NCBI GenBank assembly: GCA_963665085.2
Contig: CAXXXS010000001.1
Location: 609,155-673,154, forward strand
Length of the DNA: 64,000 nt
Source: Bacteroidales bacterium
GTDB taxonomy: Bacteria > Bacteroidota > Bacteroidia > Bacteroidales > JAAAOM01
Direction: 5' to 3'
The notes beneath the pieces are model-generated. The model was not told the origin of the DNA, searched no databases, and worked only from the letters and a program-made list of their open reading frames with translations. Both the position numbers and the translations under genes were made by a program. This document shows, piece after piece, positions 41,847-56,305 of this stretch; position 1 is the stretch's first letter, and each line of letters starts with the position of its first letter.

Positions 41847-42668
41847 ATGAACAATAATAAAATAGCTATTTTAGGCGGAGGAAACCTTGGATCCGCAATT
41901 GCAGAAGGACTAATTAGTTCTGATTACACTGAAGGTAAGAACATAACTGTAACAAGAAGAAAAATACATTTAATTGAATATCTTACAAAAAAAGGGGCAC
42001 ATGTTACAAATGATAATATAGCTGCCGTTAAATCCTCTAATATCATTATTCTTGCAGTAAAACCATACCAGGTACTTAACCTTGTATCTGAAATATCATC
42101 TGCATTATCTGATAAAAAACATATATTAGTATCTGTTGTTACAGGGATTTCTATCAGGGAAATAAACAAAATAGTACCTAATATTCCTGTATACAGAGCA
42201 ATGCCAAACACCGCAATTGCAATAAGAGAATCCATGACCTGTATTGCTTCAGGAAACGGACATGATAAAAAATTAGACATTGTTTGCAACATATTTGACC
42301 ATCTCGGAAAAACGGTAATAATTAATGAAGAACTTATGGGTGCTGCTACAGTAATAGGTGCTTGTGGAGTTGCCTTTGCATTACGTTTTATGAGAGCAAT
42401 GTCTCAGGGTGGTATTGAAATCGGTTTTAATTCAGAATTGTCACAATTTATTACAGCTCAGACCATTAAAGGTGCTACGCAACTAATCCTGGAAAGTGAA
42501 AATCATCCGGAAAAAGAAATTGATAAAGTTACTACCCCCCAGGGAATAACTATCTCAGGCCTGAATGAAATGGAACATCAAGGATTCAGTTCTGCAGTAA
42601 TAAAAGGACTTCTTCAATCATTCAAAAAATTAGAAGCAATTGAAGAGAAAAAGAATAATAAAAATTAA
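41847..42668 (+). CDS. proC: Pyrroline-5-carboxylate reductase
   Basis: 273 aa with an N-terminal Rossmann motif (IAILGGGNLGSAI), AVKP, RAMPNTA, and the C-terminal dimerisation-domain motif VTTPQGITI. Confidence 0.92.
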   Translation: MNNNKIAILGGGNLGSAIAEGLISSDYTEGKNITVTRRKIHLIEYLTKKGAHVTNDNIAAVKSSNIIILAVKPYQVLNLVSEISSALSDKKHILVSVVTGISIREINKIVPNIPVYRAMPNTAIAIRESMTCIASGNGHDKKLDIVCNIFDHLGKTVIINEELMGAATVIGACGVAFALRFMRAMSQGGIEIGFNSELSQFITAQTIKGATQLILESENHPEKEIDKVTTPQGITISGLNEMEHQGFSSAVIKGLLQSFKKLEAIEEKKNNKN

Positions 42669-45600
42669 TATTTAATTAATCTTATTGATTCTGAGTAACC
42701 AGTTTCTAATTCTGTAACCCTCAAAAAATATAATCCAGAAGGAATTTCATAACCAAACTGTAGCGTTGATTCAGTTTCTTCTAGGATAGAGGAATGAAGT
42801 ACATTACCAGAGATAGATATTAATTCCATCTTTAATTCACCACTTATTCCATTTCTAGCTATTAGAAGACTATTTTTAAACGGATTTGGATAGGCACTAA
42901 CTTTGTTTAGTTTAGCACTCTTATGGTTCCCAATTCCTACTGTTGGCTCTAATTTTTTATTAATCACTGCCTGTAAAACACTATTATCATCTTCATCCTG
43001 CAAGAACAAAGCAACTTTCATATTGTCTACATTCTCAACATTGTCAACATCCCAGGTATAGCTATCTGAATATTCTTCATCTTCATCCCAGTCAGATTGT
43101 AATAAAATACCTCCTGCATCTGGCAAAAACTTCCTGAATGTATTCATAAAAATGATATTCTCCCCATCTACTTCCAGTTCAACAGAATCTTCAAGAATTA
43201 CAATGTATAGATATAAATCCCTGTCATTTGTTGATTCTAACGATTTTACCGAATAATCAACGCCAAGGGTATTATCCTCAACAACTGTATTTAATTCTAA
43301 TTCAAAGTTTGATTCTTCAAGTGATTTTACAATAATATCATTGCTTGAGATATCACTTGTCCCGTATTCATAAATATCAGTCCCATCCAACAAAGACAAT
43401 GGCACTGTTGAAGAGCCATAATATAGAAGACGGGCATTTACTTCAAGTGGGTTTATTAAATTAAAAGGATCGCTCCCCGGAAAATCTGTGTGATATTGAA
43501 TATCTATCAGATCGTTAATATTCTCTAATCTAAGTGTATTTATGAGATTGTCTTCTGTTAAACTAAGATCATCATTTGTGTTGGTAAAATGCTCTAAAAG
43601 AACCACATGATTTCGTTCCTGAAACCAAATATTATCAAAGCTTACACCACCATTCTCGTTATTAGTACCATCAGAACCATATACAATTCTAAACTGAATA
43701 TTGGTTTTTCCAGCTAATTCGTCCAATCGATGTCTTACTTCTACCCACTTAGTATCCTTAATATTAGTCCAGCCTTCATCATGTCCGCCAGGGTTACCGT
43801 TTATCTGATATGAATTGTACCAATTAAGACCATCATCGACAGTACCAACTAGATTCCATGTTTTTCCATTATCCGTTGTATATTGCAGGTTTGCGCCGTC
43901 ACGAACTTCCTCAAAATCCCTCCAAATATCAAACTTAACAAAAGGTTTCTCTATATCTTCAAAATTAAAACATGGACTTTTTATCCAAGAGGATTCTTCT
44001 CCCGTATATTCAAGTTGTGTGTACCATGCTTTATTGTTTGTTGTCTTACTAAGGCTTTCTTCTGTTGAGCCAAATAACCAACTGTTATTATTTAAAGCTT
44101 TGCTAAATTCATTTTCCCAATATGTATTAGTCACTTCAAAGTCCTGGAAATAAGGGCCATCAGCAATTTTAAAAGTAGGTTTGAGCTGAATATTATCCTC
44201 AACAGTATCTACACATCCTTGCGTAGTTTTTGCTATCAATTTCACCAGGTATTCATCAAGAAGACTGAATTTATAGTATATACTATCTCCATAAAAATAT
44301 TCTGTCCCTACATCATCAGAAAAAATCCACTCATATTCAACTATATCGTAATTACTGGTAACTGTTTGCACAAAAAGAATTGAAGTATCTGGATCTAAAC
44401 ACTCAGAGGAAAAAGTAAAACTTGAAAGAGGGCTTTTCCCAAATTCAATATCTTTTGTAGCAGTAGCCACACAATTTTCACTAGTAGTTGCAGTAAGAGA
44501 TACAGTATAATCATCTGCTGTTTCGTACGTATGAGAAGGATTTTCTATAGTACTGGTATTCTGAGAACTTCCAAAATCATTAAAATTCCATAACCAAGCA
44601 GTTATTTCATCTTCCGACTCGGTTTGGTTAATAAACCTAATTGCTAATGGGGAATTTTCATTTACACATGTATCCTGTGTTGTGAAATAAATATGCGGTA
44701 TATCATTAACAACAACCGTTTCTATGGCTTTACTAATACATCCACTTGGCGCTTCATAACTAAATGTAAGATCATTAGTCCCAACACTAGCTTTTTTGGG
44801 ATTAAAATAGAAATTAATTGCGTCTGTAGTATCTGATTCGACACCTGTACCAGAAAACACACCGTCCAGTTCACTTCCATTTAATACAATTCGTGAATCA
44901 TTTCCACAAAATTCTGTTGTATTAAGTATAAAAAAGACCTCATCCACATATTCTATACTTATAATTCTTTCCAAAGCGTCATAAGAACTTCCGCTCCAAT
45001 AGGTATACGTAATTGTATAATCGCCAACTCCAAGGACCTGGGGATTGATAGTAGCACTGTTGTCTCCATGGTTTGTTAACCCAACACCTCCTGATATTGA
45101 AAAAGTACCTACCTGCTCATAAATATTAGCCCCTGTTATAATAAAAGGATCTTCATTCGAACAAAACACATCCCTATCATCAGGAAAAAATATATTCGCA
45201 ATCGAATCAATTATTGTAACCTCAGCTGTATCTGAATAAAAACAACCCGTAGTAGGATTTTCATAGCTGTAAATTATTTCGTATGGCGTTTCGCCATATT
45301 CAACTGCCAATTCAGGATAAAATATTGAAGTACTCGTTACAACACCATCTCCTTTAAATTCTCCTCCTGAAGGACTTGCCACTAGTTGAACAGGATTAGA
45401 GTTTATTGCATATGTTGAGCTCAGCCCAACAAACTGAATTTCAACATCAGGATAATTCGATACTGTTGCTGAACCGCTGGACGTTCCAATACAACCATTA
45501 TTATCTGTAAATTCTAATATTTCATATTCTCCAGGCTCTGTAACATGGAAAGAAAAAGGTGTTGTATTAATTCCTTCTATCGTCCCAGCAGATTCATCAT

Positions 45601-46360
45601 CAATCATATATTCCATATCATAAGGAGCAGAACCAGTAAATATTACACTCAACGGCGTTGATTCTTCTGCACATTTCTCATCTCCTCCCACTAAGTATGC
45701 AGTTGATTTATCATAATGCGATAATGTAAATGTTCCAACAGCTGTACCCGTACAGTTTTGATCACTAACAGTAAGAAGTGAATATGTTCCTTCCTGAGAA
45801 ATATTTAAATAATAGGGTGAAGATTGAATCTTAGAAACTGTTACGGCAGTTCCTCCATTATAACTGTATGTTATCTTCCATGGGGCGTTACCGTTAAGAT
45901 CTATCCTTGCATTGTACGAACTTTCTTCACAAATTGATCTATTGCCAGATATTATTGCTTCCGTTAATGGTGCAATGAGACTCGTTTTTATAGTATCTGT
46001 AGAATACGTTATTGGCCCATCATTATCAGAAGCCGCAATCAAATAGAACTCTCCTGTTTTGTCGAATTCTAAAATTGTATCTTGCTCATAAATATTATTA
46101 TAGATATTTGTAAAATCACCTTCTGAATTATTAACCTGGATTGTTACACTCCATGGAGCGGTCCCCGCCAGGGATAAATTAATTTCCACAACCTCTCCAT
46201 AACAAATAGCAGTCTCTCCAGTGATAACTGCTTGTTGAGCAAACACTGAATTAGAAGTCAATAAAAGGACTATAGTGACTCCAAGATATAATATCTTATT
46301 TGCTAACCCTCGTAAATATGCAAATGGCCAGAAATTATTATTTTTGTATTTATTATTCAC
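42665..46360 (-). CDS. Large T9SS-secreted surface protein: Ig-like repeats, two PKD domains, a MAM/LamG-like jelly-roll, an Omp28/thioredoxin-like region and a T9SS C-terminal domain
   Basis: 1231 aa with a signal/TM segment (ILYLGVTIVLLLTSNSVFAQQ). PKD-like segments are present (WLWNFNDFGSSQNTSTIENPSHTYETADDYTVSLTAT; YEWIFSDDVGTE...YLVKLIAKT). There is a jelly-roll-like region (WIKSPCFNF ... GANLQYTTDNGKTWNLVG ... IQFRIVYGSDG). The T9SS CTD reads AYPNPFKNSLLI ... GLYFLRVTE. It is the last gene of the six-gene operon. Confidence 0.8.
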   Translation of the reverse strand: MNNKYKNNNFWPFAYLRGLANKILYLGVTIVLLLTSNSVFAQQAVITGETAICYGEVVEINLSLAGTAPWSVTIQVNNSEGDFTNIYNNIYEQDTILEFDKTGEFYLIAASDNDGPITYSTDTIKTSLIAPLTEAIISGNRSICEESSYNARIDLNGNAPWKITYSYNGGTAVTVSKIQSSPYYLNISQEGTYSLLTVSDQNCTGTAVGTFTLSHYDKSTAYLVGGDEKCAEESTPLSVIFTGSAPYDMEYMIDDESAGTIEGINTTPFSFHVTEPGEYEILEFTDNNGCIGTSSGSATVSNYPDVEIQFVGLSSTYAINSNPVQLVASPSGGEFKGDGVVTSTSIFYPELAVEYGETPYEIIYSYENPTTGCFYSDTAEVTIIDSIANIFFPDDRDVFCSNEDPFIITGANIYEQVGTFSISGGVGLTNHGDNSATINPQVLGVGDYTITYTYWSGSSYDALERIISIEYVDEVFFILNTTEFCGNDSRIVLNGSELDGVFSGTGVESDTTDAINFYFNPKKASVGTNDLTFSYEAPSGCISKAIETVVVNDIPHIYFTTQDTCVNENSPLAIRFINQTESEDEITAWLWNFNDFGSSQNTSTIENPSHTYETADDYTVSLTATTSENCVATATKDIEFGKSPLSSFTFSSECLDPDTSILFVQTVTSNYDIVEYEWIFSDDVGTEYFYGDSIYYKFSLLDEYLVKLIAKTTQGCVDTVEDNIQLKPTFKIADGPYFQDFEVTNTYWENEFSKALNNNSWLFGSTEESLSKTTNNKAWYTQLEYTGEESSWIKSPCFNFEDIEKPFVKFDIWRDFEEVRDGANLQYTTDNGKTWNLVGTVDDGLNWYNSYQINGNPGGHDEGWTNIKDTKWVEVRHRLDELAGKTNIQFRIVYGSDGTNNENGGVSFDNIWFQERNHVVLLEHFTNTNDDLSLTEDNLINTLRLENINDLIDIQYHTDFPGSDPFNLINPLEVNARLLYYGSSTVPLSLLDGTDIYEYGTSDISSNDIIVKSLEESNFELELNTVVEDNTLGVDYSVKSLESTNDRDLYLYIVILEDSVELEVDGENIIFMNTFRKFLPDAGGILLQSDWDEDEEYSDSYTWDVDNVENVDNMKVALFLQDEDDNSVLQAVINKKLEPTVGIGNHKSAKLNKVSAYPNPFKNSLLIARNGISGELKMELISISGNVLHSSILEETESTLQFGYEIPSGLYFLRVTELETGYSESIRLIKY

Positions 46361-47534
46361 TTGAATTCAATTTTAATAGTGCGACATCGCTACTCTCATT
46401 TTCATTATAGCCTACAAGATATAGTTCTCCATCAATTACTAATGAATTATTTACTTGTAATAGAGATGCATTTGAACTGTTATTTGCACCCAATTCTTTT
46501 TTTGCTAAAAAGTCACCATCAAAATCATAATATAATATACAAATATTACCATTTTTCTGGCCTTTAGGAAACCTGTTTGATATTACTGCAAATCCTTTAT
46601 TCTGAAAAACAATATCAACAGGTACAATGTTTCTTGTATCTACAAAATCGGTTTCCCATTCAACACTCAAAAAATTATCCAGATCAACTCCATAAATCTT
46701 CAAACCGCTAACTTCATCATCTGAATTTTTTTCGTTTGCTGCAAAGATTATCGTATTATCATACTTTTTCAGACATAATCCTTCATTAATTTTCTCAGAA
46801 CCATACGATTTATAACCTGTCTGTTTACCTGTACCCTTGAGATTAACAAGCCATATAGATCGTTCTCTACTGGATGTAACATTATAACTCTCTGAATAAC
46901 CAATAAAATAGTATGAATCGTCTACTTCAATAATATTAGAAGCTATATCATCTGCATAACTTCCTCCATTAACGTATTGAGAAACAAGTTCCCCATCCAA
47001 ATTAATTTTCAAAAAATAGGTGTCTGTTAAATCTCCAGTGCTTGTAGTATTTCCCAGTACAACAATCTCATTCCCTAAAATAATAGCATCAGAAGCACTA
47101 ACGCTATTAAGATATTCTCCGTAATAATTGCTCCACTCGATTGAATTATTTTTTAACTTTCTAATAAGTATCCTTTCATTATACCCATCATCCATTACAC
47201 TTGAAACTATGTATAAATTATTCGCTTCATCACAAAGAAGTTTTTGCCCGTACTCATCTTCATCCAAATCATCGAGGATAAAAGGTTTATTAATAAACTC
47301 TCCTTGCTTGTTTAAAAAATATAAACAAGTACTTGCCCTGCTTGTATCTGTAACCTGAAAATTCGATAAGACACAAATATTATTATTATACTCACAAATA
47401 TCTACTCCAATATCGTTTTTACCTTCTCCAAAATATTTAACAAATGCAATATCTGATTGTGTTCCTTCATCAACACATCCCGTTATAAAACTAATAACAA
47501 CAAAAACCGCAAATATGATATTTCTATAATTCAT
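46353..47534 (-). CDS. Lipoprotein with repeated beta-propeller-like units
   Basis: 393 aa with the lipobox SFITGC. Repeated units are present (LYIVSSV..., YFIGYSE..., LYLVGYNENESSDVALLKLN). It overlaps the downstream gene by 8 nt and abuts the upstream gene with 0 nt between them. Confidence 0.6.
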   Translation of the reverse strand: MNYRNIIFAVFVVISFITGCVDEGTQSDIAFVKYFGEGKNDIGVDICEYNNNICVLSNFQVTDTSRASTCLYFLNKQGEFINKPFILDDLDEDEYGQKLLCDEANNLYIVSSVMDDGYNERILIRKLKNNSIEWSNYYGEYLNSVSASDAIILGNEIVVLGNTTSTGDLTDTYFLKINLDGELVSQYVNGGSYADDIASNIIEVDDSYYFIGYSESYNVTSSRERSIWLVNLKGTGKQTGYKSYGSEKINEGLCLKKYDNTIIFAANEKNSDDEVSGLKIYGVDLDNFLSVEWETDFVDTRNIVPVDIVFQNKGFAVISNRFPKGQKNGNICILYYDFDGDFLAKKELGANNSSNASLLQVNNSLVIDGELYLVGYNENESSDVALLKLNSSE

Positions 47535-48566
47535 CTATCTGATTTTTGCTGGTTTATAAAATGTGTATCTGTATCCGATATTAATGAATACATTGTGTAA
47601 AAGAAAGTTATCATCAATATAATAGTTATCTGACCATAAAAAGTCATTATACGTTAACCTATTCTTACTCTGATAAGCAAATCCAATTTTCGAATGAACA
47701 TCTAAAAAAACAGTCCCTTTAGAAATTGGATATGAATAATTAACTCCAACAAGAAGACTCGGTTCAAAAGATCTTCTATGAGATAATATTGATTCCTCTG
47801 AACCAGTATAAGATGTACCTGAGTAGTCACTCTTGGTTGGAGTTCCTTTTGCAGATGTAATAAATTCGAAATTTGCCCCCAGATAGAACTCGGGTGAAAC
47901 AGATAATTCTGGAACAAGGTCACTTAAATCGTAACTTGCAAAAAGGGGTATATTTATTCTTGTCTGTTTTTCTGCAAAATTTATCAAAGCAGTATTCTCA
48001 ATAGATTCTTCGAATTCAAAATTGCTTTGAGATAGTTCAAAACGAATATTTGCGTTCAAATTTTTAACATACTTACTTAAACTATAGGAGGCACCCGCCA
48101 TAAAAGAAAAGCCTGTCTTCCCAAGTTTAATCCCTGTTGAACCGGGTGTTGGTGAAGCTGAATATACTTTTCTAATGTGAATTACTGACTGATTCGCCCC
48201 TAATCCACCATAAAATGAATATATTGGTACTGCTTTGTAAGACTCAAATAGATAGATAAATTCGGCAGGATCATCAGTCCTGACCTCGTAATTAGGAAAT
48301 TCTTTGAAAAAATTTAAAATTGCTATTTCAGCATCTGCCTGGTTATCATCAAATAGATATGTTAATATCAATATTTTATACGCACTAATTTTTTCTTCCC
48401 TGGAAAATCCTTCATTAAGACAAGGGACAAGTAAACTGGGGATATCTTCAATAATTCCATCCTCAAAATTTTGTCTTGCCCTTCTTAGATTATCGGAGCA
48501 ATCATTTTGTGCAAAGTTCTCAACACAAAAAAAAACTAATATTATTGTAAATAATACCCTAATCAT
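47535..48566 (-). CDS. Outer-membrane beta-barrel protein with an N-terminal helical (TPR-like) domain
   Basis: 343 aa. It has a signal peptide (FFCVENFAQ) and a ~100-aa helical region. The C-terminal ~230 aa show an alternating beta-strand pattern and an aromatic terminal strand (FINIGYRYTFY), resembling the OMP_b-brl_2/PorT-like families. Confidence 0.65.
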   Translation of the reverse strand: MIRVLFTIILVFFCVENFAQNDCSDNLRRARQNFEDGIIEDIPSLLVPCLNEGFSREEKISAYKILILTYLFDDNQADAEIAILNFFKEFPNYEVRTDDPAEFIYLFESYKAVPIYSFYGGLGANQSVIHIRKVYSASPTPGSTGIKLGKTGFSFMAGASYSLSKYVKNLNANIRFELSQSNFEFEESIENTALINFAEKQTRINIPLFASYDLSDLVPELSVSPEFYLGANFEFITSAKGTPTKSDYSGTSYTGSEESILSHRRSFEPSLLVGVNYSYPISKGTVFLDVHSKIGFAYQSKNRLTYNDFLWSDNYYIDDNFLLHNVFINIGYRYTFYKPAKIR

Positions 48567-48576
48567 TAAAGCTTAA

Positions 48577-51500
48577 TTAATTACATGTTTTTTCATACGG
48601 AATATCATCACCAACATACGTATTCCATTCATTTTGAGAAAAGTTTCTCTCAATGTGTTTACACATTTTCTCTGCCATTACAGAGATAGAAGTTGGCCAA
48701 ACATATACGTTGTTACCATCACGGCTTGATGACACTAAATATTTACTATTCGGGCTAAATTCAACCGAAAACACCCATGAATCGTGACCTGTTAGGACTA
48801 TAGCTGGATCATTATCATCGGAAAGATTCCATAAAAGAATTGTTCCATCGCGACTTGATGACGCTAAAAATTGTCCATTCGGAGAAAAATCTACATCTTC
48901 AACCCTTGATTTATGTCCTTTTAAAGTTCTTATCACATTTCCCGAGAACGGATTAATAAGTTTTACATCTCCTGTTTTGTCGCCAAACGCCAAATACCTA
49001 CCACTTTTATTGAATTTCAAAGTATATATAGAATTACCTGGCTGTTCATAAAGTGTACTTGGAGCGCCATCGGACAGACTCCACAGGACAATTTTACCAT
49101 CCTCCGTACTTCCAACAACATATGAACTACTTGTTGGCCTGGTACAGATTGACAATATCCTAAGATCATTTTCTACGATGATCTTGCCTTTTAATGTTGA
49201 TAGGTCCCAACTAATAATCGATTTATCAGCTCCGGTACTAAATAATAATTGATTATTTGGAGCAAATGCCAGCGACCAAACCTGGCCTGTATGTCCAGAA
49301 AGTTCTTTTGGAGATGCGTTGATGTTAGTTAAATCAAACAGGTATATTTTTGTCCCAGCACTTACACCTAACCATTTCCCATCATTACTAACTACTGCGC
49401 TTCTATACAACTGATTGTCATCTACAATAATAGATTTTGATTTGGGATTTGAAATATTCCAACTAATTATTTTTCCATCATTCCCGGTTGAATAGAAAAC
49501 ATCTGATGAATTAGGGCTGAAAGTGATGGCCCTAACTGCACCTACATGTTCTTTAAAGCTCATAAAAGACTCTTCTTCTGAGGCTTTTAATGCACTCATC
49601 ATCCCATAATAAATATCTGTATTAAATTCTTTGCCATCAAATTTTTTATTTATTTTATATGCCTGGTATGCAAGAAGTGCTTTTAAATTTAAATTTTGAT
49701 TGATTTGCCTGGACTGAATTGCCATTGTATTTGCAATTCCAACCATCCTTTGGTTATATTCACGTTCTTTCTCCCGTTCCGCCTCTGAAACTTGATCTTT
49801 TGTTTTTTCCAATGTTTGCTCAACTTGCTCAACCTGTTTTGCAGCTTGATCAATAGCTTGTTCAGATTCCTGTTTTGCAATATTTGCACCTTGTATAGCA
49901 AGTTCCTTTTCAACAACAGATTTTTCTGAAATAGCATCTGCTATCTTTCGTTTCTCTGATTCTTCTTCTGCAAATGATTCTGCTATTAATTGAAGTTCTT
50001 GTGCCCTAAGTGCATTCTGTTGCGCAATTTCTCTTTGCTTATCAGCCTCTTGTCTTGCTTCTTCTGCAATCTCTCTTTGTTTTGTTGCATCTAAACGTTG
50101 AAAATTTGCATAAAATACAAGTCCAAGAAAAATAAATGATGCTACCCCAAGTACTGCGGCGAATCTCCGGGTCCTAATAAGGGTCCGCTTTTGTAAGCGG
50201 ATTTTTGTCCTTTCCTCAGATTCATATTTTTTCTCGCTGGTCTCAAGAAAAACCATAGTTCTTTCAAAGGCAGGATTGTAGCGTTTTGCCCAGGCAAGAT
50301 TTGGTTTATATTTCTGTCTCCAATTCTGGGCAAGCAATAGATCCGGAGGCCTCCATAAGCCAGACTTTCCTAATTGATATAACTCAGCTGCTTCCGATAA
50401 ACGAAGATACATCCTAACAGATTCTTGTTCCTCGTTAATCCATAATTTGAGTTTATCCCAATTTCGCATGATGCTTTCATGGGAAATATCAATAACCGTA
50501 TTTGGAGTAAGTTCTACTTCTATTGCAGGAGTTAAAAATGCCCTACCCTCCATTCTAAACTTATCAATTACTTCTATTGTATCTCTAACAGAAGCTTGTG
50601 CTACTTCTGCTATTAAAGATACTTTTGCGGGATGCCTGATTCCCCGGTTATCTTCTCCCCTCTCTGTAAGGGTAGTAAACATACTCCTACATATTCTTTT
50701 CCCATCGTCTGTTAACTCATTGTATGCTTCATCAGCATGAATCGATATCGCCCTATCAATTCTTCCAACAGTTTCATAATCAACATAGGATATTGCAGCA
50801 TCTTTATTGCCATATTTAGTCCAATGTTGATAGGTTCTCATTAATGCATGCTGAATTACTGATAACGAATCTATTTCATCCGTCACGTTATTCAACAATT
50901 CATATATTAACTGCTCTTCTATTTTATATCCCGCTACAGAAACAGGACCTGTTATTACTTTTCGATAATCTTCCCTAGACATCCTTGGGATCAAATAATT
51001 ACTTTGATTAATCCTTCTTGCAAGATCCGGGAATTGAGAACATTCGCCCAAAAAATCCGAGCGCATTGTTACAATAACATAGATGGGAAGTTCGGTTTGA
51101 GAGACAGCCTCGGTCAACAACTTGATAAATGTCTCGGTCTCATTAATCACATCGAAGTTACGCGTAACCTCCCTGAACCTGAATAATTCCTCAAATTGAT
51201 CGACAATCAATAATAAATTTTGTCCCTCCCTGAGTTTTAATTGTTTTACTACTTCAATTAAACCAAGTGTACTCCGTTTAAGCAATGATAAAATAACAGG
51301 TTTTGCTGCACTCCTATAGTCATTATCGTCCTTCCTGTTAAATGCCTTATAAATGGACTCAGCCATGTTTGAAATAGGGCTACTGCCAGGCCTAAAATGT
51401 ACTATTTTCCAATTAGCACCGGCCTCTTTAATAAATCCTCCATGCAACCCAGATATTACGCCACAATACACAAGGGAAGATTTACCTTCGCCTGAAGCAC

Positions 51501-51681
51501 CAGTTACTGCAGCAAATCTATATCTTGTCAGATTCCTGATAACTTCAGCACTCTGTCCTTCCCTGCCAAAAAACAAGTAATTATCCCCAATCGAAAAAGG
51601 CCTTAATCCAGGAAATGGATTATAGACACCTTTCACAGAGGTTTCTTGTTCTGTTTTTATGTCAATCTGAGCTTGACTCAT
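48577..51681 (-). CDS. STAND-type P-loop NTPase with a predicted TM helix, a long coiled coil and a C-terminal WD40 beta-propeller
   Basis: 1034 aa. The N-terminal motif is FPGLRPFSIGDNYLFFGRE. Walker A is GASGEGKSS (aa 61-69) and Walker B is LLLIVDQFEELF. The helical module contains DISHESIMRNWDKLKLWI. A basic stretch (KIRLQKRTLIRTRR) precedes the TM helix FAAVLGVASFIFLGLVFYANF (aa ~507-527, nt ~50101-50163). A ~115-aa charged coiled coil follows, then at least 6 WD40 repeats (e.g. GHTGQVWSLAFAPNN...SWDL; GHKSRVEDVDFSPNGQFLASSSRDGTILLWNL). Confidence 0.85.
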   Translation of the reverse strand: MSQAQIDIKTEQETSVKGVYNPFPGLRPFSIGDNYLFFGREGQSAEVIRNLTRYRFAAVTGASGEGKSSLVYCGVISGLHGGFIKEAGANWKIVHFRPGSSPISNMAESIYKAFNRKDDNDYRSAAKPVILSLLKRSTLGLIEVVKQLKLREGQNLLLIVDQFEELFRFREVTRNFDVINETETFIKLLTEAVSQTELPIYVIVTMRSDFLGECSQFPDLARRINQSNYLIPRMSREDYRKVITGPVSVAGYKIEEQLIYELLNNVTDEIDSLSVIQHALMRTYQHWTKYGNKDAAISYVDYETVGRIDRAISIHADEAYNELTDDGKRICRSMFTTLTERGEDNRGIRHPAKVSLIAEVAQASVRDTIEVIDKFRMEGRAFLTPAIEVELTPNTVIDISHESIMRNWDKLKLWINEEQESVRMYLRLSEAAELYQLGKSGLWRPPDLLLAQNWRQKYKPNLAWAKRYNPAFERTMVFLETSEKKYESEERTKIRLQKRTLIRTRRFAAVLGVASFIFLGLVFYANFQRLDATKQREIAEEARQEADKQREIAQQNALRAQELQLIAESFAEEESEKRKIADAISEKSVVEKELAIQGANIAKQESEQAIDQAAKQVEQVEQTLEKTKDQVSEAEREKEREYNQRMVGIANTMAIQSRQINQNLNLKALLAYQAYKINKKFDGKEFNTDIYYGMMSALKASEEESFMSFKEHVGAVRAITFSPNSSDVFYSTGNDGKIISWNISNPKSKSIIVDDNQLYRSAVVSNDGKWLGVSAGTKIYLFDLTNINASPKELSGHTGQVWSLAFAPNNQLLFSTGADKSIISWDLSTLKGKIIVENDLRILSICTRPTSSSYVVGSTEDGKIVLWSLSDGAPSTLYEQPGNSIYTLKFNKSGRYLAFGDKTGDVKLINPFSGNVIRTLKGHKSRVEDVDFSPNGQFLASSSRDGTILLWNLSDDNDPAIVLTGHDSWVFSVEFSPNSKYLVSSSRDGNNVYVWPTSISVMAEKMCKHIERNFSQNEWNTYVGDDIPYEKTCN

Positions 51682-53086
51682 TGGTATTTAATTCATTAAA
51701 AATAGGACTCAAAGATTTATCTAAAAGTTTGTCCTGATATATAATTTTTATAACGTCGCCAATATCTCTTTTAAATATCTTACTATAATCATCTTCTTCT
51801 AGCATTACTGCTTTAACCTTAAATTGTTTCTCCCGGCCATATCCCCAGACTTTCCTCAAATCATTTAATTTTGCGTCAAGCCATCCTTCAACACCATTAT
51901 AGATTATTATAACCCCATCACAATTACTCAAATTCTCGTAGTGTTCGTTGAGTACATTTTGAGCCTCATAATTCAGCTCTAATGTTTTTATTTTATTTTC
52001 TGATAACAAAGATTTTATTCTATCTGCCTTTTCTTCAGCAGTTTTATCATATACAAGATATATTGATTTTTCATCCACTACTTTAGTGTTAGACAATTTA
52101 ACACGGGCTGCAATCTTTTGAAAAATCATTTTTTTTAAGTCCTCAAGAGGAGCTTGAATTATCTCTGTTGATTCGTCTGTCTCTTCTCTTCGTATCCTTC
52201 GAAGATATAATTCCTGTCTTTGATCTGGAATTTTAAGATATGGTGGGATCCAAATTATACGTTGAAAACTTGCTTTTCCCCTGTTTGCTGCTATGAATTC
52301 TTTTACTTGCCTATTCTGAAAATCATTAAGAGAATATGCTGTACCTTTTATATAATCTCCATAAATTCCACCCATAATGTGAATACTGAGCTGAGATTTT
52401 TGACATATATCCAGGATCTCGTTCTTTAATTCATCTGATTGTCTTGGTAGAGAGGATTTCGGAAGCACATCAAATCCTCTTTGTCTTAACTCTCTAATAA
52501 TTTTGTCTCTATATATTTCCTGATCCGGACTGGTCTCTGCAACAAAAACCTTGATAAAGTTATTCTGAGCCTGTTCTGAGTCTTTGTCGACAAATTGATG
52601 AATATCATATACAAGGTCAATTAAGTTGTCCCAGATTACAGAGTTATCCGGGATTTTTTTTGAAAAATCAATAGCCTTAAAACTTTTAATGCCAATATTC
52701 CTTTCAAAGATATTGTACGATGAAAAAGTATTTAGCCACTCTAATTTTGAATCATAAAGGGGTTTTTGGACAATTAACCGAAGTTTTTCTTCGTGTTTCC
52801 CATCCTCAAGCATTTTTTTTAATAATTCCTCATAGGATTTATTTTTAATATATTCAGGAGATATTATTGCAAATAAGATATCAAATTCATCTTTAAAACT
52901 TAAAAAAGTCTCTTCTTTCTCTATCGGGCGAAAATCTTTTATAACTATTTCGATTTTATCTTCGAAGAGCTGACTATATATTTCCTGTGTTAGATTAACA
53001 AATTCAGAAATCCATATAATAGATTTATCTGGTATATCTTTTTTAGATACAGGATAAAATGTTAATATTTTTAATGTTTTTGGCAT
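51662..53086 (-). CDS. Protein of three tandem alpha/beta modules resembling TIR-like/DUF4062 domains
   Basis: 474 aa with no TM or signal sequence. Module 2 (KVFVAETSPDQEIYRDKIIRELRQRGFDVLP ... QLSIHIMGGIYGDYI) resembles the DUF4062 pattern. Modules 1 (ILTFYPVSKKD ... FDILFAIISPEYIKN) and 3 (IYLVYDKTAEEKADRIKSLL ... CDGVIIIYNGVEGW) resemble TIR-like folds. The assignment rests on motif resemblance only. It overlaps the NTPase gene by 20 nt. Confidence 0.5.
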   Translation of the reverse strand: MPKTLKILTFYPVSKKDIPDKSIIWISEFVNLTQEIYSQLFEDKIEIVIKDFRPIEKEETFLSFKDEFDILFAIISPEYIKNKSYEELLKKMLEDGKHEEKLRLIVQKPLYDSKLEWLNTFSSYNIFERNIGIKSFKAIDFSKKIPDNSVIWDNLIDLVYDIHQFVDKDSEQAQNNFIKVFVAETSPDQEIYRDKIIRELRQRGFDVLPKSSLPRQSDELKNEILDICQKSQLSIHIMGGIYGDYIKGTAYSLNDFQNRQVKEFIAANRGKASFQRIIWIPPYLKIPDQRQELYLRRIRREETDESTEIIQAPLEDLKKMIFQKIAARVKLSNTKVVDEKSIYLVYDKTAEEKADRIKSLLSENKIKTLELNYEAQNVLNEHYENLSNCDGVIIIYNGVEGWLDAKLNDLRKVWGYGREKQFKVKAVMLEEDDYSKIFKRDIGDVIKIIYQDKLLDKSLSPIFNELNTNESSSD

Positions 53087-53092
53087 AAGTTC

Positions 53093-56000
53093 TTAACTAG
53101 CTCTTCTTTTTTTTGATGCGTAAAAATCGTTCATTATTTTTTGAAAAACAATTTCTAACTCAGGAAAATCAAATATTTGCATATTGAGATCCTCTCTTGT
53201 GATAGTAATAATTGATGTCATCATTAACGTCTTTACATCAATTTCATCTATTTCCTTATCATGTAACAGTCCAAAATCAATCACACTGTTTTTATTTAAC
53301 CTTAGAATTTTTTTTCCTTTATGTTGTATTTCTACTTCGCCTTCAGCTACAAAAAGAATTGGATAAGTCCATGGGTTTCCTTTATATGTAATTATCCTGT
53401 TTGCTTCCATTGTATCTTCCGTAAGGTAGATTGAAAGTTCTGTAAGTATTGCAGGCCTTAAACTACCGATATGTTTCAATTTTTTAAGAAAATTAACTTT
53501 ATTAATGAGTAATCTTCTCTTAAAAGTTTTATAAAATTCTACTGAATTGTCAAGGAAGAGCCTTGTTTGCTGATCTAACCGTTCGAGCGTTTCGTAATAA
53601 AGATCCGGATCTTTATTAAAAACCAGGCATGCTGCTGTTTCTTGTAAAATTCTGGATTTATGAAACAAAAATGAAATAATTACATCATTTAATTGAAAAT
53701 CATCATTATCAATTAAACTATATAAAACTTCGGCCTTTGTCCAAATACTAATTTGGCCTAGCTCAGAAGTCAGAATCTGGTTAATTATTTCATCTTTTTC
53801 TACTTTTTCAAAAGGAAAAAATTGACTTAATGACTTCATCTTTTGAAGCATTGAAGAACTTTGGAAAGCAGGTATTAAAATTGATTTTATGTTGCTATCA
53901 ATTATATTATCAACTAATTCCAAGGCAAGATGGTTCGATGTTAAGTCTTCTTTTTCAATATAATCCCTCAATTTTGCAATAATGCTCCTGTTATGAATTA
54001 GGGAGAGCATCATGTATATCCTGTCAAAACTATTTTCTATATCATTTTTAAGTGATTCCTGTACTGTTTCAGAATATTCTGTTTTTGCTAATGATACCTG
54101 CAGGGTAAGATTTTGAGTGATTGAACTAACAATTTTAATAATAATATTAAGTATCTTATACTGTGATTTTTCGTTAGGCCTATATCCTGAATCTACTAAA
54201 CTGGATGTTGCTTGTCTTGATACTTCAGGAGAAGAAAAATCAATTTTAGAAATAAGCAACATTTTAGCCTTTTCACTATTAAAATCTCCAACTAACTTAA
54301 CTACTCGTTTAAGTAATTTATCGTCTATTTTAGGTTCAAAAAATAATTTTTCTAAATACTCAATGCATTTATCACCCACTCTAATTAAAACATCATAGGC
54401 ATAAGCATAATTCTCTGCTGATGCCAGCTGATCAATCATAATGGGAGTAAGCTCATTGGCATTAAAATTTGTTGATGCAATAAATGCTGCATTTCTAACA
54501 TTTGGATCATAATCTTTTAACAACAAGATAATCTGAGACATTAGTTTTTTATCCTGAATAGCTCCTATCATATTCGCTGCTAAAATCCGGTTATCAGAAT
54601 CTCTTGAATCGACTAGTTTATAAATATTTGTATAGTCGTTCGTAGTTTTTAATTGAGTAGCAAAAATATCGGAAAGCTTTTTAAATCTTGTTTTTAAATA
54701 CGCATCTTTCAGATTCTTTGTCTGTTTTTCTATCTGGTTCTGATATTGCAACATACTTAGTTTTTCTATCCTTTCTATTGCAAACTCTTTTATTACTTCT
54801 GGGCTATTTCCTAACAAGTAATATAAATTATTTCTAAAATCCGCAGGATAATTACTTTCAGCTAATTTTAATGTATAAAGCATTTTATCAGGATCGTCAA
54901 GCATATTAAGCTTATATAAACGCTGTTTTAATCCTATTACCTGATTTAAAAAATACTTTTTAGATTTTGCTAATTCATTTAAATGGGCCCTCAATAAAAT
55001 CTGAAATTTCTTTAGTAAAAGAAATAACGATACAATTGCAGCGATACATAGGAAGAAAATGACTATTGCCACTACTACTTCCCGGTTTGATGATAGTTTT
55101 GTTATGATGTATATGATTCCTCCAGATATTGCAAGAGAAACAAAATAAAAAGTCCCCCTAAAAAGTCTTCTTAACAAATCATAAGTAGGAATCTTATTAA
55201 TTCTTAATAAGATATTTAACGAAGGAGAGTAAACACTGTCGCGAAGAACATCATTCATTATTTTTAACAGAACAAAAAACAAAAACATGAGAGAATATTT
55301 ACTAATAAAAACATTCTCTTTTATTAAAAAATTTATCGCCAGTAATAATCCAACCAGGATTAAGATAACAACTGGAATCACAAAAATATTAAATGGAGAG
55401 TCGTAACTATTTAAAATTCTTTTAATAAGGATATACTTAAAAAATAATGAGAACATGGACAAAGTCCCCAAGAATAAACCTAAAAACTTAGCATATCCGA
55501 TACCTGATTCATAATTACCCTGAAGTAACGTATAAAACGAAAAATTTATATGAACAGTGATAAAAACAAGAAGCATACAGCTAATGATCATATAAATAAA
55601 ATATGGATATTTAAAAATCATTCTAAGACTTACACTTTCATATTTTCCAGCTATTAATCTTTGTTTTGCGCCATAGTTTGCCTTAGTTGTACTTCCAATA
55701 TTCATTTGTACAAACAAGATCACCAGCACTCCACCAAAAGCAAACAAAAGGAGCTCCCCAGAGTGGGGCCGTATTAATAAATAAACAATTATTAAAAATC
55801 CAACGGCTGCTACACCCAAATAGTAAAATGTATCAAGAAAAAACTTGTACCTCTTTGACTGGTCATTCGTAAAATACAGTCCTTGAATTCCTTGAGTTAA
55901 GTAAAAACTTAAATTATTAATCGGGATTGCAAAAATAACCCCAACATAAAAAATAACCGGAGTAAAGTAAAACAAAGATAATAAGCCTACTATTAGTAAA

Positions 56001-56305
56001 ACTATTAGAAGCAATAAATAGTAATAGAAACTATAAAACCTAACTTTGGTTTGTATTTTCAATCCTGCAAAAACAGGGAATAGAATAACCCCTGCTATAC
56101 CAGAAAAAACAAAAACTAATGGAAGCTCCCTTGCAGAATAATAATGTAAAAAATTTGAGAAGATATAAATATCAAACGCTCCAATAAAAACTCCTAAAAA
56201 AAAAGCTTGCAAAATAAACTTGGAAAGGAAAGACAGTTCATTAAAGTCAATGTTAAAATGACTAAAAAGGTAGTTCTTTATTTGGTTTCCCTTGAGCGAT
56301 TTCAA
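53093..56305 (-). CDS. Polytopic membrane protein (MFS/TLC nucleotide-transporter-like, ~12 TM) fused to HEAT repeats and a C-terminal degenerate cyclic-nucleotide-binding-like domain
   Basis: 1070 aa. About 12 hydrophobic helices occupy aa ~25-430. HEAT/PBS-lyase-like repeats are present (NRILAANMIGAIQDKKLMSQIILLLKDYDPNVRNAAFIAS). The last ~138 aa (nt ~53096-53510) have a CNB beta-roll pattern (RIITYKGNPWTYPILFVAEGEVEIQHKGKKILRLNKNSVIDFGLL). They lack the canonical FGE...R[ST]A phosphate-binding cassette. Confidence 0.7.
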   Translation of the reverse strand: MKSLKGNQIKNYLFSHFNIDFNELSFLSKFILQAFFLGVFIGAFDIYIFSNFLHYYSARELPLVFVFSGIAGVILFPVFAGLKIQTKVRFYSFYYYLLLLIVLLIVGLLSLFYFTPVIFYVGVIFAIPINNLSFYLTQGIQGLYFTNDQSKRYKFFLDTFYYLGVAAVGFLIIVYLLIRPHSGELLLFAFGGVLVILFVQMNIGSTTKANYGAKQRLIAGKYESVSLRMIFKYPYFIYMIISCMLLVFITVHINFSFYTLLQGNYESGIGYAKFLGLFLGTLSMFSLFFKYILIKRILNSYDSPFNIFVIPVVILILVGLLLAINFLIKENVFISKYSLMFLFFVLLKIMNDVLRDSVYSPSLNILLRINKIPTYDLLRRLFRGTFYFVSLAISGGIIYIITKLSSNREVVVAIVIFFLCIAAIVSLFLLLKKFQILLRAHLNELAKSKKYFLNQVIGLKQRLYKLNMLDDPDKMLYTLKLAESNYPADFRNNLYYLLGNSPEVIKEFAIERIEKLSMLQYQNQIEKQTKNLKDAYLKTRFKKLSDIFATQLKTTNDYTNIYKLVDSRDSDNRILAANMIGAIQDKKLMSQIILLLKDYDPNVRNAAFIASTNFNANELTPIMIDQLASAENYAYAYDVLIRVGDKCIEYLEKLFFEPKIDDKLLKRVVKLVGDFNSEKAKMLLISKIDFSSPEVSRQATSSLVDSGYRPNEKSQYKILNIIIKIVSSITQNLTLQVSLAKTEYSETVQESLKNDIENSFDRIYMMLSLIHNRSIIAKLRDYIEKEDLTSNHLALELVDNIIDSNIKSILIPAFQSSSMLQKMKSLSQFFPFEKVEKDEIINQILTSELGQISIWTKAEVLYSLIDNDDFQLNDVIISFLFHKSRILQETAACLVFNKDPDLYYETLERLDQQTRLFLDNSVEFYKTFKRRLLINKVNFLKKLKHIGSLRPAILTELSIYLTEDTMEANRIITYKGNPWTYPILFVAEGEVEIQHKGKKILRLNKNSVIDFGLLHDKEIDEIDVKTLMMTSIITITREDLNMQIFDFPELEIVFQKIMNDFYASKKRRAS

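Follow-up and report, generated by a model that had tools for sequence, protein, structure and literature searches.

A single-span STAND NTPase with a predicted periplasmic WD40 propeller may relay envelope signals to a TIR/DUF4062 partner in Bacteroidota

STAND and NLR proteins are understood as cytoplasmic sensors, in which a repeat arm folds back on the nucleoside triphosphatase (NTPase). Can such a switch operate when a membrane separates the two? This question is raised by gene C of a Bacteroidales bacterium (assembly GCA_963665085.2, contig CAXXXS010000001.1), which lies in the 64,000-nt stretch of DNA that was analysed as a whole (positions 609,155 to 673,154 of the forward strand; hereafter the window). 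C encodes an nSTAND1 NTPase, a hydrophobic helix, a coiled-coil stalk and a WD40 propeller, and it directly follows gene B, which encodes a TIR/DUF4062 protein. An earlier note, made from the letters of this DNA, had placed the NTPase in the cytoplasm and the coiled coil and propeller in the periplasm. Our analysis supports this placement through the charges flanking the helix, a relative with a dCache domain, other domains found behind the helix in relatives, a cysteine pair and the outer-membrane barrels encoded downstream. We consider C, with considerable confidence, to be a bitopic inner-membrane protein with a real transmembrane (TM) segment, its N-terminus inside and its C-terminus outside. 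With more reserve, we think it probable that this membrane-spanning STAND protein relays an extracytoplasmic input to its cytoplasmic TIR/DUF4062 partner. With this predicted topology, the clade cannot work by fold-back of the repeat arm and, being widespread, provides a natural case in which to study the operation of a STAND switch across a membrane.

The NTPase module of C was matched by the Pfam profile PF20703 (nSTAND1) at aa 22-436, over profile positions 1-372 of 379 (E = 2.4e-89; 301.1 bits against a cut-off of 27.1). It opens with FPGLRPF (aa 23-29) and FFGRE (aa 37-41). The Walker A motif (GxxGxGKS) and the acidic residues of the Walker B motif are both intact and are invariant in 69 homologues, as are G61, G64, G66, K67, S68, S69 and the stretches D161-R168 and T205-D209. 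All motifs quoted in the earlier note (FPGLRPF, FFGRE, Walker A, Walker B, the basic stretch, the helix and the repeats) were present in C. In an AlphaFold2 model built on the 69 homologues (mean predicted local distance difference test score [pLDDT], 82.7), a predicted alpha/beta core is followed by helical domains up to about aa 470, with the WD40 propeller at the C-terminus. Foldseek aligned the full-length model to the Apaf-1 entries 3shf and 3sfz. As modelled, C has the layout of the STAND class, that is, an NTPase, helical/winged-helix modules and a C-terminal repeat sensor (Leipe et al. 2004). The juxtamembrane helices are highly conserved, and their invariant residues include W443, P445, P446, D447, L448, W454, W464 and E473. 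The N-terminus is hydrophilic and has no signal peptide, and Pfam detected no fused effector domain in C.

The sole hydrophobic segment of C is aa 507-527, exactly where the earlier note had located its hydrophobic helix. Its mean Kyte-Doolittle value over 19 residues was 2.32, compared with 1.08 for the next-best segment, and the simple sum of Hessa-scale values was -1.0 kcal/mol, compared with +8.3 kcal/mol. The 15 residues on its N-terminal side include seven K/R and no D/E, and the 15 residues on its C-terminal side include three K/R and four D/E. In the model of C, aa 472-559 form one unbroken helix that runs through the basic stretch and the membrane segment. C has one span of at least 19 residues, a positive-inside charge bias and no signal peptide, and all these features of a bitopic protein are kept in its homologues.

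A search with aa 1-700 of C returned at least 7989 clusters at 90% identity. Among the best 120 of them, nearly all were 1025-1054 aa long and about 50% identical across the whole of C, and every one (120/120) had a single strong hydrophobic segment, located within aa 494-521 and preceded by 6-8 K/R. The residues of this segment differ widely among these 120 homologues, with hydrophobicity and position both kept. The same segment was found straight after the NTPase in 78 of 80 loci (L001-L080) taken from species-representative genomes of six phyla (Bacteroidota, Cyanobacteria, Acidobacteriota, Planctomycetota, Proteobacteria and Desulfobacterota). An HMMER scan with the NTPase alone gave 39,124 clusters at 50% identity, 8,199 of them with E < 1e-30. 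A TM segment at aa 440-600 was present in 146 of the 150 most similar 50%-identity representatives, and inspection revealed one just beyond this filter in three of the remaining four. nSTAND1 proteins encoded on Streptomyces and Microchaete plasmids, 28-29% identical, also have a TM segment, about 375-415 residues after Walker A. Thus, more than 340 homologues have the hydrophobic segment and its basic N-terminal flank in the same position, with varying residues, which argues that the segment is more than a chance feature. The earlier note's reading of the helix as a membrane span gains from this pattern, and the survey of homologues that it had proposed spoke decisively against its refuting condition, a helix generally absent from them. 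Judged from these sequences, the TM helix is a hallmark of the clade. Readings of aa 507-527 as a buried helix or as an artefact were considered and ruled out by the conservation of hydrophobicity with free variation in sequence. Small residues are often retained in the helix, in the pattern VLGxAAIxxLG, and could mediate helix-helix packing in an oligomer.

We infer that the C-terminus of C is outside because the N-terminal module needs NTP, there is no signal peptide, the span is single and the charges are biased. The bias extends to the 146 TM-bearing representatives, whose flanks contained on average 6.0 K/R and 1.5 D/E on the N-terminal side and 2.7 K/R and 2.7 D/E on the C-terminal side. 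The domains that follow the TM segment in relatives bear on the same question. A metagenomic relative of 856 aa (P0235) consists of an nSTAND1 NTPase, a TM helix at residue 483, a dCache_1 domain and a second TM helix at residue 820. This placement, with the dCache domain enclosed by a pair of TM helices, is the textbook layout of a periplasmic sensor, and P0235 is in effect a STAND protein with a chemoreceptor-type periplasmic sensor. Two other relatives (P0250 and P0230) carry PDZ domains after the propeller, and P0250 also has an F5/8-type-C (discoidin) domain. A 1582-aa homologue of C from a cyanobacterial metagenome-assembled genome (L060) has 14 near-identical WD40 repeats with two inserts between them; the one insert that was scanned is PPC-like (pre-peptidase C-terminal), with an E value of 9.7e-5, a match that falls short of the Pfam cut-off. 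WD40 or TPR arrays also follow the TM segment in relatives. The dCache relative, the discoidin and PDZ domains and the sub-threshold PPC-like insert suggest a location outside the cytoplasm, as do the cysteine pair and the outer-membrane barrels described below.

The span leads into a predicted alpha-helical stalk. The earlier note had described here a highly charged, heptad-like region of about 115 aa; such a region is present but is longer than that, since in the model the helix of aa 472-559 continues beyond the span and is followed by a second helix at aa 563-659. The sequence QREIAEEARQEADKQREIAQQ (aa 535-555) contains QREIA twice. Conserved alanines are spaced by heptads at aa 532-634, the strongest peak of periodicity is at 3.5 residues, and the hydrophobic power at 3.5 residues was equalled by 13 of 2000 shuffled sequences. 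Relatives carry comparable stalks (median of about 124 aa). A helical cap with the motifs LLAYQAY and NPDIY, conserved in the 69 homologues, precedes the propeller. The earlier note had counted at least six WD40 repeats, and the model has seven blades with 27 strands. The propeller superposes on the WD40 domain of PkwA (5yzv) with a TM-score of 0.92, and its blades are divergent (self-identity of 15%). The C-terminal tail, modelled at pLDDT 85-93, follows the family consensus C..RNxTxxEWxxYVGxDIxYxxTC. Among 204 sequences, both cysteines of this tail are present in 164, neither in 39, and one sequence is mixed; on a neighbour-joining tree, at least 15 state changes left this one sequence in an intermediate state. 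Residues gained and lost together in this manner are the signature of a disulfide, and a disulfide needs oxidation. C1007 and C1033 are probably a disulfide pair that closes the propeller tail, which would place the tail in an oxidising compartment.

The most widely conserved partner gene of C is the upstream gene B, which the earlier note had overlooked. The two reading frames overlap by 20 nt at the stop of B and the start of C, and relatives of B, 470-530 aa long, end at or over the start of the C gene in almost all of the 80 loci, across phyla. The window's B matches PF13271 (DUF4062) at aa 179-247 (27.5 bits, cut-off 24.7) and matches TIR_2 weakly (Pfam). In the B family, 36 of 42 members match DUF4062 and 34 match TIR_2. 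The family profile matches the plant TIR NADases (NAD-degrading enzymes) SNC1, RUN1 and L6 and, weakly, the DUF4062 domain of KpSwz (PDB 10wc; E = 0.038). The alignment and an AlphaFold2 model indicate three alpha/beta domains, with TIR first, DUF4062 second and a TIR-like domain third. Foldseek with the whole three-domain model returned a mixture of weak Rossmann-like matches (best E = 1.7e-05, TM-score of about 0.25), and sequence profiles were therefore used to assign the domains. A phmmer search of B against the PDB gave a spurious designed-protein match alone; the TIR likeness appeared in the profile search. The conserved pairing makes B a rather probable functional partner of C. In Chitinophagia/Sphingobacteriia loci, a class of 590-665-aa proteins is encoded directly upstream of B; the one member that was scanned (L046:6692-8455) has a TrkA_N (NAD-binding) domain and weak RyR domains and is possibly NAD-related.

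B and C belong to a cluster of six genes, A-F, all on the minus strand (Table 1), with gaps in the window of +6, -20, +10, 0 and -8 nt. Synteny of A-B-C-D extends over Cytophagales, Bacteroidales and Flavobacteriales, and the six-gene cluster is kept in Cytophagia and Bacteroidia. The gene after C, D, encodes a predicted outer-membrane beta-barrel. The barrel assignment comes from the family, in which 31 of 36 aligned members match PF13568 (OMP_b-brl_2; best E = 1.7e-20) and whose profile matches OpcA (1k24); the window's own D had no Pfam match. In Chitinophagia (L047:13131-15710), a protein encoded after the STAND gene is TonB-dependent-receptor-like, and its N-terminal extension shares homology with the N-domain of D (E = 2e-15, with 34% identity over 85 aa). 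This unnamed module is common to different outer-membrane barrels. In Chitinophagia/Sphingobacteriia the gene after C encodes a TonB-dependent-receptor-like Plug and barrel protein, and in Acidobacteriota it encodes a Phenol_MetA_deg outer-membrane barrel. Thus, three unrelated barrel families stand directly downstream of C in three lineages, which speaks for an outer-membrane partner of the extracytoplasmic arm of C. D itself may be the periplasmic partner of C, at odds that we put slightly below even.

E has weak matches to DUF5122 and to a delta-60 repeat (Pfam, NCBIfam). Nearly all A-D syntenic loci have a 405-490-aa signal-peptide protein at its position, most with a lipobox-like cysteine. 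At the position of F, other loci encode signal-peptide proteins that are usually 1800-2200 aa or longer; a C-terminal domain of the type IX secretion system (T9SS) was confirmed there in the window and in locus L029. The earlier note had named D, E and F as candidate ligands or partners of C. For D this is backed by conserved synteny, and E and F are candidates by position.

At the other end of the cluster, A has 12 hydrophobic segments and a HEAT_2 match (Pfam). The profile of its family matched the ADP,ATP carrier 9j3n (E = 1e-20) and the cNMP-binding domains of PKG (E = 6e-25); the cNMP-binding domain was found at the family level, with PF00027 matched by 11 of 21 members. A is possibly a ligand-gated nucleotide transporter encoded beside a TIR/DUF4062 gene, and its role as a target of the pathway is doubtful. 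NCBIfam had nothing for A-D, a weak repeat match in E and a T9SS match in F. The cluster is flanked by gyrB-gyrA-aroK-Vut_1 and by proC-pgk-holB. A scan for sigma-70 promoters and terminators stayed at the level of shuffled sequence, with Bacteroidota promoters lying outside its model, and window positions 1-64000 contained no tRNA or tmRNA gene (ARAGORN) and no Rfam family at gathering score. A-F stand as a conserved cluster, unannotated in Bacteroidota, whose predicted products link the cell surface, outer membrane, periplasm, inner membrane and cytoplasm.

Table 1. Genes A-F of the window and features of the C and D proteins
Feature	Position (nt)	Strand	Residues	Remarks
Gene F	42665..46360	(-)	1231 aa	Secreted; Ig-like, PKD, Omp28-like and T9SS C-terminal sorting domain (Pfam, TIGR04183)
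Gene E	46353..47534	(-)	393 aa	Lipoprotein, lipobox ...ITGC; weak beta-propeller repeats
Gene D	47535..48566	(-)	343 aa	Outer-membrane beta-barrel (family assignment), signal peptide, helical N-domain of ~100 aa
N-domain of D	48180-48506	(-)		Predicted periplasmic; two conserved Cys
Gene C	48577..51681	(-)	1034 aa	nSTAND1 NTPase, TM helix, coiled-coil stalk, WD40 propeller; ATG start
Conserved C-terminal tail of C	48580..48693	(-)	aa 997-1034	C1007...RNFSxxEWxxYVGxDIxYxxTC1033
WD40 propeller of C, seven-bladed	48694..49536	(-)	aa 716-996	Predicted periplasmic; PF00400, E = 3.3e-40
Helical cap before propeller	49579..49692	(-)	aa 664-701	Model helices 664-680 and 688-701, pLDDT >90
Alpha-helical stalk	49705..50100	(-)	aa 528-659	Predicted periplasmic; conserved Ala every 7 residues
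Single TM helix	50101..50163	(-)	aa 507-527	FAAVLGVASFIFLGLVFYANF; 21 residues
Basic stretch	50164-50205	(-)	aa 493-506	KIRLQKRTLIRTRR
Juxtamembrane helices	50164..50370	(-)	aa 438-506	Highly conserved; end in the basic stretch
nSTAND1 NTPase module	50374..51618	(-)	aa 22-436	Predicted cytoplasmic; Pfam match
Walker B	51181-51216	(-)	aa 156-167	LLLIVDQFEELF
Walker A	51475-51501	(-)	aa 61-69	GASGEGKSS
Gene B	51662..53086	(-)	474 aa	Predicted cytoplasmic; degenerate TIR, DUF4062, third TIR-like domain
Gene A	53093..56305	(-)	1070 aa	Inner membrane; 12-TM NTT/TLC-like nucleotide-transporter domain, HEAT, C-terminal cNMP-binding domain

Several points weigh against a transmembrane relay from the periplasm to B. 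The topology of C is deduced from its sequence, WD40 and TPR arrays are typical sensors of cytoplasmic STAND proteins, and the periplasm is an unusual place for a canonical WD40 propeller. The confidence of the stalk model is low at aa 540-600 (pLDDT). For the cysteine-pair tail, no TM-less nSTAND1-WD40 control was found, since P0255, P0267, P0269 and the Streptomyces and Microchaete plasmid proteins all have a TM segment. The partnership of C with D, E, F and A is argued from synteny, and some loci have no B (L042-L045 and a Persicobacter plasmid). The TIR motif of the window's B has degenerated from SxWCxxE to NKSYEELLK, in which the Trp is lost and the Glu is shifted by 1-2 positions. In addition, the DUF4062-like domain of the B family has a nearly invariant Q257 in a conserved SxxxxQN stretch. 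By eye, Q257 falls at the putative catalytic E-Y motif of DUF4062, and the D/E upstream of it is variable. Because of the degenerate TIR motif and the Gln at this putative site, the enzymatic output of the window's B is doubtful.

With these points in mind, we propose the following mechanism for the relay. The cytoplasmic nSTAND1 module (aa 20-470) would be joined through the helix of aa 472-559, which carries the span of aa 507-527, to a coiled-coil stalk of about 100-130 residues that presents the seven-bladed propeller in the periplasm. Since the membrane excludes autoinhibition by fold-back of the Apaf-1 type, this helix and the heptad stalk are the likely transmission element. A change in the packing or clustering of the stalk and TM helix, induced by a ligand or a partner, would pass the signal through the helix, and the occupancy or clustering of propellers would control the NTP-dependent oligomerisation of the cytoplasmic modules. 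Judging from the conserved pairing, the output would be the translationally coupled B, recruited to or activated on the C platform, where it may take the role of the fused N-terminal effector in other nSTAND1 proteins. In Cytophagia/Bacteroidia, the periplasmic input would be the N-domain of D, possibly together with the lipoprotein E and the secreted F. More speculatively, A might act as a downstream target that reads a nucleotide product through its cNMP domain. The full chain, in which A-F form an unrecognised STAND-based cell-surface pathway running from F/E to D, C, a catalytically remodelled B and then A as a nucleotide transporter gated by cyclic nucleotides, and in which an immune TIR-STAND module has become, by domestication, a housekeeping relay across the envelope, is in our judgement rather improbable as a whole. 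If the A-F relay is true, the drive of a STAND switch passes through a membrane, in place of fold-back autoinhibition. The pairing of a STAND protein with TIR and DUF4062, domains recently shown to be NADases, gives concrete partners for testing.

The lineages of the family differ in two respects that bear on its function. The TIR motif S[ED]WCxxE is intact in all aligned loci without A-B-C-D synteny except L072 (SNGCHRIVE), and in every syntenic locus of Cytophagia/Bacteroidia its Trp is lost and its Glu usually displaced. Several relatives outside Cytophagia/Bacteroidia have near-identical tandem WD40 repeats (33-51% positional self-identity), and the blades of the six-gene-cluster lineage are old and divergent (8-15%). 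The idea that loss of the TIR motif coincided with the presence of gene A was weakened, as the TIR is intact in Chitinophagia loci that also contain, at a greater distance, genes resembling A and D. PADLOC-DB v2, whose models include anti-phage STAND systems such as Avs and bNACHT, detected no defence system among A-F; its sole match was between the WD40 repeats of C and HEAT-ARM_XIII, with none for A, B, D, E or F, and this release predates Swarozyc and Evangelion. A collection of 50,697 phage records gave only three remote matches. Apart from those on Persicobacter megaplasmids, no close plasmid homologues of C were found.

These observations matter for a reading that has the same topology and another purpose, namely immunity instead of housekeeping envelope signalling. 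In such an abortive-infection or conflict system, the periplasmic repeats would sense an invader at the envelope, for example phage adsorption or injection or a competitor's toxin, and the oligomerised STAND protein would activate TIR/DUF4062 so that NAD+ depletion or a signal leads to dormancy or death. It would fit the definition of nSTAND1 within conflict systems, the NADase effectors that TIR and DUF4062 provide in anti-phage defence, the caspase- and kinase-fused versions in published tables and, outside Cytophagia/Bacteroidia, the intact TIR motif and the near-identical repeats, which are typical of diversifying receptors. The window's cluster, however, lies among gyrB, gyrA, aroK, proC, pgk and holB, its six-gene synteny is kept, and between orders C remains about 45-50% identical and hardly changes in length. 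Because its TIR is degenerate, its blades are old, no PADLOC system matched, and phage matches and plasmid homologues are few, we think it more likely that the window's cluster has been domesticated for envelope signalling. The conflict reading is the main rival and, in our view, unlikely, although the clade at large may plausibly serve immunity.

The remaining alternatives concern what the helix and the NTPase do. The TM helices could themselves be the effector, with an oligomer bundling 7-12 of them into a depolarising pore and the periplasmic arm serving as trigger or anchor. The absence of a fused effector domain from C, the loci without B and the G/A/S-rich helix, whose small-residue consensus would favour packing, are compatible with this; against it, the sequence of the helix varies much and is entirely apolar, leaving no polar lining for a pore, nearly all loci have a translationally coupled B, and published relatives have N-terminal effectors besides the TM segment. 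A pore is thus very unlikely. A mechanical machine spanning the envelope in the manner of Tol-Pal or TonB, in which the NTPase would work through the stalk on an outer-membrane barrel, a lipoprotein or T9SS cargo, for example in handling surface proteins, is also improbable, if slightly less so. One operon does contain a barrel, a lipoprotein and T9SS cargo, a TonB-dependent-receptor-like barrel lies downstream in Chitinophagia, and the stalk is TolA-like in composition, its approximately 105 heptad residues being able to reach about 15 nm. STAND NTPases, however, are slow nucleotide-gated switches and not motors, a TIR/DUF4062 partner and a cNMP-binding protein suggest signalling, and B-C pairs of other phyla occur without any envelope genes. 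Finally, the helix could be a tether, buried or re-entrant, on an otherwise ordinary membrane-localised STAND protein with cytoplasmic repeats. This is what the usual location of WD40/TPR sensors would predict, and AlphaFold2 is unable to place a membrane; the topology of C is a matter of deduction. It is nonetheless highly improbable: an apolar segment of 21 residues with charged flanks is of sufficient length to span a membrane and is too short for a hairpin, its residues vary freely with hydrophobicity kept, unlike those of a packed core helix, and the dCache relative, the discoidin/PDZ domains, the sub-threshold PPC-like insert, the covarying cysteines and the downstream barrels all speak for an external arm.

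The relay through the membrane has counterparts in known systems. In FecA-FecR-FecI, an outer-membrane barrel with a periplasmic N-extension acts on a single-pass transducer with its N-terminus inside and C-terminus outside, which has a cytoplasmic output. The proposed route from D to C to B resembles this logic, and in Chitinophagia a TonB-dependent-receptor-like barrel carries the N-domain of D. The likeness is in logic only: Pfam detected no FecR, anti-sigma or ECF-sigma domain in A-F, and here the transducer is an NTPase switch and the output a TIR/DUF4062 protein. PknD of M. tuberculosis has a cytoplasmic catalytic domain, one TM segment and an extracytoplasmic beta-propeller sensor, and ExeA/GspA has a cytoplasmic P-loop ATPase, one TM segment and a periplasmic domain. 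Both are precedents for the topology of C only, as their catalytic domains are unrelated. Apaf-1 has a STAND NTPase followed by WD40 repeats, as C does, but its propeller folds back, unlike that of the membrane-split C.

DUF4062 was recently described as a TIR-like NADase that stands N-terminal to NACHT-WD40 in human NWD1 and TEP1, with the catalytic Glu at E97 in KpSwz and E87 in Eva01 (bioRxiv 10.64898/2026.05.01.722283, 10.64898/2026.06.25.731849). B and C together have the same parts list (DUF4062, STAND and WD40) as NWD1/TEP1. Apaf-1 and NWD1/TEP1/NPHP3 have a NACHT or NB-ARC NTPase, whereas C has nSTAND1, and DUF4062 is fused in NWD1/TEP1/NPHP3, whereas DUF4062/TIR is here on the separate polypeptide B. 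B plus C is a split, membrane-interrupted counterpart of DUF4062-NACHT-WD40. The DUF4062 match of B above the Pfam cut-off and the weak KpSwz profile match recall the anti-phage DUF4062 NADases Swarozyc and Evangelion. In those systems one gene, often carried by a mobile element, encodes a cytoplasmic sensor-effector, while B has three domains, is coupled to a STAND protein and, as matched by eye, has a nearly invariant Gln at the putative E-Y motif.

Part of this system is already catalogued. The nSTAND1 family was named by Kaur et al. 2021 (eLife 10:e70394), whose main text mentions it once, in another context. Figure 2-source data 1 of that paper has 'nSTAND1+TM' 412 times, 'nSTAND1+TM+BetaPropeller' 278 times and 'TIR+DrHyd' 92 times, and includes nSTAND1+TM proteins with HTH, kinase or caspase N-termini, which fit a general transmembrane-transducer design with cytoplasmic outputs. 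The entries have PF20703 and the same domain order as C, and those of Cytophagales (HCM75174.1) and Bacteroides sp. have the same upstream genes. The window has this operon type, with the TM segment after the NTPase, a propeller, B as TIR+DrHyd (DUF4062) and A as the multi-TM+cNMP gene. The paper's table lists the architectures, shows the downstream outer-membrane barrel, lipoprotein and T9SS genes as '?', and gives no description of the topology, the stalk or the cysteine pair. We suspect that one label in these source data was carried over from a cyanobacterial WD-repeat protein and has no bearing on the architecture. Kibby et al. (10.1101/2022.07.19.500537) noted that bacterial NACHT proteins with TM segments are probably sensors of signals from the membrane or the periplasm. 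These are, like C, STAND proteins with membrane segments. They belong to another STAND clade with multiple TM regions, sometimes inside the NACHT module, whereas in C a stalk and a large repeat domain come after one single span, and the preprint's account of them reports no envelope partner genes. The nSTAND1+TM+BetaPropeller architecture, half of the operon and the general idea of a periplasm-sensing TM STAND protein are thus on record in these sources. The earlier note had started from the premise that the sensor and NTPase of a STAND protein share one compartment, which holds for canonical members and overlooks both the membrane-bearing NACHT proteins and the listed architecture. A targeted full-text literature search returned no paper on the topology argument for this clade, the stalk, the cysteine pair, the outer-membrane barrel partner, the shared N-domain, the six-gene cluster or the split between intact and degenerate TIR. 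Within the reach of that search, the envelope partners of C appear new. Architectures in supplementary tables can conceal mechanistically distinct systems.

A further setting of the family was found on plasmid pPP2 of Persicobacter psychrovividus (L082, 8795-14994), where a C-like gene is paired, without B, with a gene for a 1,048-aa protein of unknown type. PGAP labels both products 'hypothetical protein'. The pair sits inside a contractile-injection-system locus with sheath, tube, baseplate, PAAR and tape-measure genes.

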